Below, piece by piece: positions 9,001-12,000 of a stretch of 20,832 bases of DNA. Made by a program: the position numbers. Where the stretch lies: IMG/VR virus record IMGVR_UViG_2690316002_000015; one strand, given 5' to 3'. The stretch is from a virus. Taxonomy: Duplodnaviria > Heunggongvirae > Uroviricota > Caudoviricetes. Numbering within the stretch: position 1 is the first letter of the stretch; every line of letters starts with the position of its first letter.

Positions 9001-12000
9001 TGCTTTATTAGCAGCTAAGCGAGCATCAAGTTCCTCTCTGCTGATCGTTCCCACTTCTTCCTCCGTTTGTGGCGGTTTTATGTAATTATTTTGCACCTTG
9101 GTGGGAGAATTATCAAATTCAGCCTCAAAATCGGAACCGCCAACAACCTTCAACCTCCGGCTTTCAGATATGTTGGTGTCTTGCTTTCCATGATTATTTA
9201 AATTACTGTCGTCACTCATAATAGCTCTACGGTGAAAAATGATTCATTTTTATGAAGTTCATTTTTAGGGTCTTCATTATCTTGCAATATCCCTATAACA
9301 CTATACAGCCCTTTAGCTGGGACCCTAATTTCTTTCAATGTTACTATTACCTGTCCGCCAACCCCTGTTTCAAAATGGCTATCTTTCGTATCGATGAAAA
9401 GTGAAACTGATTCCGAAGAGCCGTCAGGGAATTGAATTTCCTCACCTTTTTTTATAATTAGGTGCGCGGGGATTACCATAATACCCAAATTATATCTTGA
9501 ATTTGGTTTCAACCCGATCATACCAACCCTGAAATCAATTGATAGCCGCGCAGGAAATTCATTGCATGTAAAATTAAGCGTCGGTTGGTTGGGTTCTTCG
9601 CTGCTATCAAATGGGGTTATAAAAGATATTCTTTCTAAATTAAGTGCCATAAATTCTCCTGCATCGCTGTATGCTCTACGAGCATCTCTGCGATCATCCA
9701 TCATCCAAACGTCTCTTCACTCATCCGAAGAAGCAGCAATCCGGGTCAGCACGCACAAGCTCAAGCGCATCAGTCAGCGAAAGTTCAGTACTGTACTGAT
9801 GCCATTTCATATCCTTCCGCATCCAATAGATTTTCCATCTATCCAGAGAACGTATGTACTTGATTCTTGCTGATGGCAGGATGTTTGTTTCACCTGGGTT
9901 GCCCTGCCACACGGGGCGCTGTTCGCCGATATCTATCGTTTGGTCATTGATGCTATAAACAATATCCAGTTCATTGCGGATATGTTCAGGCGGCCTTATG
10001 CTTTCAATGAATTGGTGAACTTCTTTTTTGACCGCTTGATATTCAAGGTCAGTGAACGCCATCTATCCTCCTCACCCAAACGTTTCTTCTGGCCACTGGT
10101 TACCAGCTATGTGACGATGAAGTCACGAACTTTTCAGCCACTCCCTTGCCTCGATGTCATCCAGATGGCGAGATTGCTTCAGAATACCAGCTACATACTC
10201 CACCTTTGCTACTTGATGATAAGGCAACGTTATAGGCCTGTGATCCTGGTTAATGCTTGTAAATTGGTATTCTCCATCTCTGTCATAGCCAAGAACCTTA
10301 ATCATGTTGTGTCCTTCAACGGTTCTGACAAACACCTCGTCACCCGGGAATACTTTGGTGTTAGGCTCAATGAGTACATATTCTCCTGATTTTATTCTGG
10401 GCCACATGCTGTCTCCTTTCACACGAAGACCAAAGGCATCTGGATCATCGCTATAAATTTTGAGCCACCCATCGCGCTCTTCGGTCATCTCGATGGCACC
10501 ATCAACACCAAGAATTGCCTCACCAACCACGCGCACTAACCCTTTTCTTACCTGACCGACAAAAGTTAAAGAATCTGAGCATGATGCAATTGGTGTTACA
10601 TCATGTACCAAATCAAGCCACCCATTAGGTAACCCAAGCGCGGCTTCAAATTTTCTTGCTAGTTTATCCCCTATGTTTCGAGTGCTTTTTTCACCGGAGA
10701 CTTGCGTGAGTTGAGAAGGGCTAACCCCAAGCTTATCGGCAAAGCTTGCATTAGTGTTACCCGCGATTTTTTTATGCTCATCTAGCAAAAACGCCAGATT
10801 CGATTTGCGAATATCTTTGTTTTCCATCTCACAATTTTCCCTCTATTTAGCAAATGGATAAATACGCAATATGATAAATTTACATTGCGGATGATTTATC
10901 AAAATGGTAAAGTTGTTCTGTGTGATAAACGGAGGCACTAATGAGTAATGAACTACTACGCTGGCGAAAAGAGGCTTCTAGTGAGGAATGGAAGCGACTC
11001 GCCGCATTAGCGAAAACTTCAGTTGGCTATCTTGACCAGATTGCATATGGATTTCGAAGAGCTTCCCCTGATAAAGCGAATGCAATCGAAGAAGCTACTC
11101 GTAATTTCACGGGTTATAAACCTGTGAAAAAGGAAAACCTAGTGTTCGTATCGCGTAGAGCATCGGCTGCATAAGTAACACCGCTCTTTTCACAATGGAC
11201 ATTCGTCCTACGTCGCTGACAAAGCGAGTCCCAATATATCTGACCAACTAAGGCCATATGCGTTTCCACGCATACCTTTCAACTAGCTATTCACTATTGG
11301 AAATCTTAAGAAATGGAACAAACAAGTTACAGCAAACTATCACAGCGAGAAATTGATCGCGCTGAAACTGATTTACTCATCAACCTGTCAACGCTTACCC
11401 AGCGCGGTCTGGCAAAGATGATTGGCTGTCATGAATCGAAGATAAGCAGAACGGACTGGAGATTTATTGCTTCGGTCTTGTGTGCTTTCGGAATGGCATC
11501 AGACATCAGTCCGATTAGCAGGGCTTTTAAGTATGCGCTTGATGAAATCACAAAGAAAAAATCCCCGGTGGCCGCCGGGGACTCTAAGCAAATTGATATG
11601 CAATTCTGAGGGAATTACTGGATCAATCCACAGGAGTCATTATGACAAATACAGCAAAAATACTCAACTTCGGCAGAGGTAACTTTGCCGAACAGGAGCG
11701 TAATGTGGCAGATCTCGATGATGGTTACGCCAGACTATCAAATATGCTGATTGAGGCTTATTCAGGCGCAGATCTGACCAAGCGACAGTTTAAAGTGCTG
11801 CTTGCCATTCTGCGTAAAACCTATGGGTGGAATAAACCAATGGACAGAATCACCGATTCTCAACTTAGCGAGATTACAAAGTTACCTGTCAAACGGTGCA
11901 ATGAAGCCAAGTTAGAACTCGTCAGAATGAATATTATCAAGCAGCAAGGCGGCATGTTTGGACCAAATAAAAACATCTCAGAATGGTGCATCCCTCAAAA

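Follow-up and report, generated by a model that had tools for sequence, protein, structure and literature searches.

Interchangeable accessory gene cassettes between cI and N of a 933W-immunity lambdoid prophage, with a revised start for gene B and a partner gene C

We have analyzed three small genes, here called A, B and C, that lie between the repressor gene cI and the antiterminator gene N on a 20,832-nucleotide (nt) stretch of DNA (IMG/VR record IMGVR_UViG_2690316002_000015; "the window"). The window contains the early and immunity region of a lambdoid Escherichia coli prophage and is 99.9% identical to chromosomes of E. coli strains such as 2013C-3342. We favor, with reasonable though not high confidence, the view that the three genes are a stack of interchangeable moron cassettes that occupy the cI-to-N hotspot of a prophage with 933W immunity, a view that takes in a probable expression in the lysogen and a putative anti-phage role. 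B and C are one translationally coupled two-gene unit, and sequence comparison resolves the start of B to ATG 9650, giving a protein of 144 amino acids (aa), with five lines of evidence in agreement. The locus is clean and fairly ordinary phage mosaicism, and its modest lead is B-C as an alternative occupant of the slot that holds rexA and rexB in lambda.

The practical outcome is a corrected gene model, in which B has 144 aa rather than the 162 aa given in RefSeq and is partnered by C, and in which the misleading upstream ATG is explained by its position within a fossil repressor 3' end. The locus also illustrates how lambdoid phages stack accessory cassettes between two borders, with the scars of this process travelling with A even into Erwinia. 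Were an anti-phage role of B-C to prove true, the unit would be a small alternative to rexAB that is easy to test, combining a conserved membrane effector with recognition parts that can be exchanged. A true role for A would likewise give a first phenotype to a DUF3024/PDC-S43 candidate carried by Shiga-toxin phages such as 933W.

The features of the slot are as follows, all on the minus strand.

10072..10089, minus strand: scar 1, GAAGAAACGTTTGGGTGA, the fossil last five codons and stop (EETFG*) of a lambda-type cI, from alignment with real cI ends
9721..10062, minus strand: gene A, 113 aa, DUF3024, a stand-alone single-gene cassette (Pfam PF11225, phrog_3467, PADLOC PDC-S43)
9701..9718, minus strand: scar 2, GAAGAGACGTTTGGATGA, a second fossil cI 3' end (EETFG*), from alignment with real cI ends
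9682..9700, minus strand: shared linker, TGGATGATCGCAGAGATGC, 19 nt, from the sequences downstream of A in nine loci
9651..9681, minus strand: B-specific 5' leader with AGGAG (9660-9656) and no promoter-like site
9216..9650, minus strand: gene B, 144 aa from ATG 9650, first gene of the B-C cassette (phrog_5893)
8599..9219, minus strand: gene C, 206 aa, partner of B (phrog_5820, E 1e-76)
8571..8592, minus strand: intrinsic terminator Timm, the right border of the slot, an 8-bp GC-rich stem followed by a T run

The start codon of gene B and the B-C unit

An initial annotation, made from the sequence of the window, had given B two candidate starts, ATG 9704 with a weak ribosome-binding site and ATG 9650 with AGGAG at a distance of 5 nt, the latter leaving a 70-nt spacer behind A. 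This description is accurate, as are the coordinates assigned to A and B and the 113-aa length and ADPDCCFFG ending of A. The long form of B (9216..9704) has 162 aa from the first ATG, with ATG 9650 in frame. AGGAG (9660-9656) precedes ATG 9650 across the spacer AATTT, only a poor purine stretch lies upstream of ATG 9704, and the short form leaves 9651-9720 untranslated between A and B. The two ATG codons are thus real, but the ambiguity drawn from them is removed by comparison, which designates 9650 as the start.

Among B homologues the N-terminal extension is confined to near-identical E. coli copies. Homologues at 63-79% identity have 143-144 aa and start at the equivalent methionine, and in at least ten other contexts (Citrobacter, Enterobacter, metagenomic phages) the upstream in-frame open reading frame (ORF) closes 1-4 codons above the equivalent of ATG 9650. 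An exhaustive hidden Markov model search of 1.8 billion representatives added about 15 further small B clusters of 140-153 aa, whose members all begin at profile positions 1-4 and carry, a few residues in from the start, a conserved E-R-I-S-F motif. The match of B to phrog_5893 (E 3.3e-50) likewise begins at residue 21 of the long form. Comparison of E. coli haplotypes shows 8 variable sites in the 54-nt extension, giving 5 non-synonymous and 1 synonymous codon variants, whereas the 435-nt body of B has 6, of which 4 are synonymous and 2 non-synonymous. In the GenBank record of HK542, B is given in the short form of 435 nt and 144 aa (L001 2067-2501).

The contrary reading, that B is a 162-aa protein initiated at ATG 9704 (or 9701), or that both starts are used to make two isoforms, can draw on three observations. 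Every E. coli copy, HK542 among them, keeps the frame open from 9704; the RefSeq/PGAP annotation calls the long form (WP_223277105.1; L003 10718-11206); and when B directly follows a lambda-type cI, ATG 9704 and the cI stop share the sequence ATGA, through which translation of the two genes can become coupled. However, the extension is missing from every diverged homologue, evolves without coding constraint, has the weaker ribosome-binding site and lies outside the PHROG profile, and the HK542 authors themselves chose the short form. Moreover, the extension opens with codons from a scar and a linker that also precede unrelated genes or nothing at all; since these are not specific to B, the apparent long start is best seen as a by-product of the scar. 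We therefore consider a long form or a pair of isoforms very improbable, and the 144-aa form of B is used below.

The start ATG of C overlaps the stop of B by 4 nt (ATGA, 9219-9216), and C adjoins B in every locus examined except one (L007), where no gene was called after B. The initial annotation had presented A and B as the pair, but these two occur independently, and the conserved, translationally coupled partner of B is C (8599-9219). B-C lies directly behind the prophage repressor in every complete locus examined, with A intervening where the repressor is 933W cI. At least six types of repressor are found in this position, including lambda cI, 933W cI, helix-turn-helix (HTH)-only proteins of 137 and 155 aa, and S24 proteins of 161, 231 and 241 aa, and the hosts include Escherichia, Citrobacter, Enterobacter and Cedecea, among others. 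Even in a distant locus (L050), with B down to about 35% identity, B is followed by a C homologue with an hhalign probability of 99.6.

B is predicted to be a soluble all-beta protein with an immunoglobulin (Ig)-like sandwich. The remark in the initial annotation that B has no assignable motif was correct with respect to Pfam and NCBIfam: neither gave a significant family for B and 19 relatives, the best match being DUF6941 (E 0.023, 3 members). C comprises an N-terminal region of about 50 aa with an LKV[V/I]GGSDFEA motif, a coiled coil at about 55-150, a single transmembrane helix at about 152-174 (Kyte-Doolittle maximum 2.71 at 156-174, after about 150 hydrophilic residues) and a Pro/Gln-rich tail. 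The PHROG families that B and C match are annotated as of unknown function. Neither B nor C matched a PADLOC model, PDB searches with B (sequence and profile) and C (sequence) returned no solved structure below E 0.07, and a scan of a one-genome-per-species collection found no relative of B. The matches of C to the alpha-pore-forming toxin components MakE (E 0.0058) and SmhB (E 0.48) and to Baculo_PEP_C (E 0.001) are sub-threshold and probably reflect coiled-coil composition.

C homologues of about 45% identity in Yersinia and Pectobacterium (L211-L213) share its coiled coil, membrane helix and Pro/Gln tail but differ at the N-terminus, and unrelated proteins of 97-99 aa precede them instead of B. 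One copy is located beside dinI at a prophage end, not behind a repressor. For a Cedecea C with the B-type motif at its N-terminus, the upstream gene encodes a B-family protein (hhalign probability 100%). This co-variation between the N-terminus of C and the upstream partner points to binding of B to the N-terminal part of C, without proving it.

Scars, linker and borders of the slot

By rising coordinate, the minus-strand genes are N, the terminator, C, B, A and the 933W-type cI, so that the reading order is cI, scar, A, scar, linker, B-C and Timm. A, B and C thus occupy the slot between cI and N, which is the position of rexA-rexB in lambda. The scars were identified by alignment with lambda, HK542 and an IMG/VR locus (L021), in all of which cI really ends in the 18-mer of scar 2. 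Scar 1 lies between the present 933W-type cI and A, and similarity to the 3' end of lambda cI reaches to about 10100 (QWPEETFG*). Its TGA overlaps the Shine-Dalgarno sequence of A and forms part of the ribosome-binding site of that gene. Together, the scars form 18-nt direct repeats that bracket A, 371 nt apart and identical at 16 of 18 positions; the scar pattern matched twice in the window and never in 100 shuffles. The upstream ATG of B, at 9704, lies within scar 2 and overlaps its TGA (GGATGATGG).

The linker follows scar 2 whatever comes next, be it B, the 933W gene L0083 or nothing. In 933W it runs into the leader of L0083, where a 9-codon ORF opens from the same ATG, and in phages that have A only it leads into a 16-codon ORF. 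The window is of mosaic origin here. The 933W match begins at 9682, and window 9682-10150 is about 98% identical to 933W and its relatives; window 8500-9719 is 98.4% identical to HK542. The right border is conserved too: the Timm of the window matches the annotated Timm of HK542, and Timm with about 100 nt beyond it is nearly identical behind lambda rexB, 933W L0081 and C. Conserved scars on the left and a conserved Timm flank on the right thus define a slot with two borders that permits exchange and stacking of cassettes.

The cI-N region is a recognized hotspot whose occupants, including rexAB, bstA, stk and hex, are co-transcribed with the repressor (PMC8585504, PMC7067206, PMC3564112). The same slot in related phages holds variable cargo between conserved borders, which fits a hotspot moron pattern. 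Comparison with individual phages shows how B-C is related to the known occupants. B-C and lambda rexA-rexB occupy the same slot, which runs from the 3' end of cI to a Timm of nearly identical sequence, and in HK542, which has lambda immunity, B-C takes the place of rexAB ahead of the same terminator. Like rexAB, B-C pairs a soluble protein with a membrane protein on the repressor strand. No sequence relationship accompanies this likeness (hhalign probability 0.3% for B against RexA and 0.1% for C against RexB). RexB spans the membrane several times; in C, by contrast, a long coiled coil is followed by a single membrane helix, and the protein is not a multi-pass channel. A further difference is that no pLit-like promoter was found upstream of B by consensus scans, and that B and C, overlapping by 4 nt, are coupled.

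In HK542 and HK244 the B and C counterparts are c105 and c104 (GenBank EF120458), 98.4% identical in DNA; the depositors annotated Timm and listed both genes only as hypothetical proteins. HK542 differs from the window in having a lambda-type cI and no A. The 933W operon cI-L0084-L0083-stk-L0081 contains the homologue of A as L0084, with the same scars on both sides, but its stk cassette is replaced here by B-C, and B is unrelated to L0083 by sequence comparison. BstA of BTP1 and Hex of 434 offer a looser parallel, each being a single accessory gene directly behind cI that is expressed from the repressor promoter in the lysogen; no search indicated homology of the genes of this locus to BstA.

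Several related fossils were observed elsewhere. In an Erwinia aphidicola prophage (L015 4960-5400), degraded copies of both scars and of the linker flank a DUF3024 gene of 59% identity. There, a block of DUF3024, L0083-like, Ser-Thr kinase and small ORF genes lies at the prophage end beside dinI, not behind a repressor; since it still carries the scars and linker, the whole block moved together. A functional link between A and stk, which the recurrence of this four-gene block in Erwinia might suggest, was set aside as unproven, as the shared scars let common descent explain the recurrence. The end of a different repressor (GKVFWSAHS plus stop) is fossilized on both sides of the DUF3024 gene of a Kluyvera prophage (L017 4945-4975, 5333-5355), and the same C-terminus fossil is present in lambda's own cI-rexA spacer (L004 2190-2227). 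A diverged copy of the GKVFWSAHS type is also found just past the stop of the 933W-type cI, at about 10100-10122 of the window. Recombination scars appear to lie in layers at the 3' ends of repressor genes.

Gene A and the independence of the cassettes

A had been described in the initial annotation as having no assignable motif, which proved incorrect, and as a possible member of a DUF3024-like family, which proved right. Pfam DUF3024 (PF11225) matches A at 108.7 bits (E 2.4e-31) against a cut-off of 24.9, and the match is full-length, with residues 4-113 aligned to profile positions 2-112 of 112. A also matches phrog_3467 (E 4.5e-67) and the PADLOC model PDC-S43 (E 7.2e-42; residues 1-113 on profile 1-115 of 115), has the usual DUF3024 length of about 113-115 aa, and is the homologue of 933W L0084, with DNA about 98% identical. 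The C-terminus ...ADPDCCFFG, which had been called unusual, is a family hallmark: the MAFxD...CF[F/W]G ends are kept in a 39-sequence alignment with identity down to 37%, in which residues A2, F3, C110 and F111 never vary and conservation reaches at least 90% at M1, D5, F112 and G113. A carries its own strong ribosome-binding site, with the Shine-Dalgarno sequence GAGGAGG (10073-10067). The AlphaFold model of A has a pLDDT of 89.5, and PDB searches with sequence and profile gave no solved structure below E 0.07.

DUF3024 is spread over more than 200 species of many phyla. Clustering of neighbors, together with Pfam and PADLOC scans of 142 neighbors in 75 genomes, revealed no recurrent partner; the 142 flanking proteins represent 114 Pfam families, none of them in more than three loci. 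In the absence of a conserved neighbor, DUF3024 is therefore regarded as a stand-alone gene. PDC-S43 is one of 145 PDC candidates that were proposed from their embedding in BREX, DISARM or type I restriction-modification loci and presented as untested predictions (bioRxiv 10.1101/2024.01.29.577857). The match to this model says nothing on the activity of A. Literature searches found no functional work on DUF3024, PDC-S43, L0084 or the HK542 genes.

A and B are real genes, because each has a PHROG family and conserved homologues. They belong to the accessory lysogeny-side genes, in the rexAB position, and not to the housekeeping phage genes. Their relation to each other was evaluated from their distribution. 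In IMG/VR, the order cI-A-L0083-stk-L0081-N was found in about 28 loci, cI-A-B-C-N in 12, and A without a known downstream cassette in roughly 19. Of 5426 complete E. coli genomes, 227 have A, 51 have B-C and about 18 have the whole A-B-C stack. B-C is found unaccompanied by A in phage HK542 and in Citrobacter, Enterobacter, Cedecea and other hosts.

A single functional system composed of A and B, or of A with B-C, such as a regulator or antitoxin with its effector, would fit the adjacency of A and B on the same strand, both here and in the roughly 18 complete genomes with the stack. It is at odds with the presence of B-C without A in HK542 and the hosts just named, with the predominance of A without B-C (227 versus about 18 genomes) and with the recombination scar that separates A from B, and we give it hardly any credence. 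As A and B-C occur separately, they are neighbors by recombination and not a functional pair, in keeping with the stack of independent cassettes that we favor. In E. coli ESDR8 (NZ_CM169472.1, H37), an IS3-family transposase splits the A-B-C match in two, so that it spans about 3 kb.

Expression, possible function and flanking genes

The spacer between A and B had been proposed to hold an internal promoter analogous to that in lambda rexA. We found none: a consensus scan of 9650-9720 gave no minus-strand sigma-70-like site, and a relaxed hexamer-pair scan, applied to the 130 nt ahead of B in 11 contexts, gave best scores of 4.5-7.5 out of 12, below the score of at least 8 that about 10% of random 130-nt windows reach. 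The predicted fold of the spacer RNA is not significant (z-score -0.19), no Rfam family matches the spacer above threshold, and no minus-strand terminator other than Timm was found between cI and nutL.

A promoter in the spacer that drives B-C independently of cI, as pLit does for lambda rexB, would be in line with the existence of 70 untranslated nt between A and B, with gaps of 50-77 nt before B in all contexts, and with the lambda precedent of a second gene that is expressed uncoupled. Apart from the outcome of both scans, it is opposed by the composition of the spacer, about 40 of whose 70 nt are accounted for by the scar and shared linker, and by the fact that the E. coli leader and the leader of the group with 65% identity have no conserved -10 element in common. 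Such a promoter is unlikely in our view, and we attribute the 70-nt spacer to a recombination scar and shared linker instead.

With no promoter found for B-C and no terminator before Timm, read-through from the repressor promoters is the simplest model. cI is presumably the first gene of the lysogenic transcript, and we infer from gene order, motif scans and 933W data that A, B and C are transcribed with the repressor in the lysogen. For 933W, co-transcription of stk with cI has been reported, as has the abortion of HK97 infection by stk (PMC3564112), and the expression of cI, the DUF3024 gene, L0083 and stk shifts in concert (PMC10789677).

These observations are combined in the following hypothesis. 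The cassettes would have been swapped and stacked by recombination at the repressor 3' end, leaving the EETFG* scars, and at Timm. A, B and C, having no promoter of their own, would be read from the maintenance and establishment promoters of the repressor in the lysogen, and their products may protect the lysogen from other phages. B could serve as a cytoplasmic Ig-like recognition subunit that sits on the variable N-terminal part of C, and the coiled coil and membrane helix of C would then be the effector, which would work at the inner membrane through exclusion or abortive infection. For A, a separate action is envisaged, possibly as a small protein-binding factor. The data support the position, coupling, topology and modularity of B-C; the steps of the mechanism stay proposals.

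As genes of the cI-N hotspot have several times been found to exclude other phages, superinfection exclusion or abortive infection is probably the best candidate for the role of B-C, although our confidence in it falls just short of an even balance. The same role may be considered for A with somewhat less confidence. A bolder proposal, which we put forward tentatively and with more doubt than conviction, is that B-C represents an undescribed prophage family of two-component exclusion or abortive-infection systems, in which the conserved, tail-anchored coiled-coil core of C would be the effector, while its swappable N-terminus and an interchangeable small cytoplasmic partner, the Ig-like B here and the unrelated 97-99 aa proteins in Yersinia and Pectobacterium, would set the phage that is recognized, with DUF3024 acting separately in single-gene defence or counter-defence.

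The main competing view is that the cassettes might not be anti-phage at all. Hex of phage 434 stabilizes the repressor against RecA-mediated cleavage, and lambda bor and lom alter host physiology or virulence; the genes of the slot might in the same way modulate lysogeny or affect the host. However, A is also found behind HTH-only repressors that have no S24 cleavage domain, and DUF3024 genes with no repressor nearby occur in more than 200 species of many phyla. The proximity of A to cI is largely explained by co-travelling scars, even in Erwinia, and the fold similarities are all weak. A role in lysogeny or host physiology thus appears rather unlikely, and an anti-phage function remains the one we would assign provisionally to the stacked cassettes.

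The genes that flank the slot on the minus strand are the following.

10123..10827, minus strand: cI repressor of the 933W immunity type, with HTH and S24 peptidase domains (Peptidase_S24, E 3.8e-16; phrog_4, transcriptional repressor)
7710..8093, minus strand: N-like antiterminator, an intact ORF of 127 aa (Pfam N_peptide, E 2.1e-15)

The cI of the window is 98% identical to the 3' part of 933W cI, and cro, cII, O and P follow on the plus strand beyond it. N is reduced to a 69-nt piece in a near-identical RefSeq genome (L003 9211-9279), where it is annotated as an incomplete pseudogene named "regulator". In the translation of replication gene O (11642-12628), an extended stretch reads as X, as the DNA is masked or undetermined at about 12270-12590.

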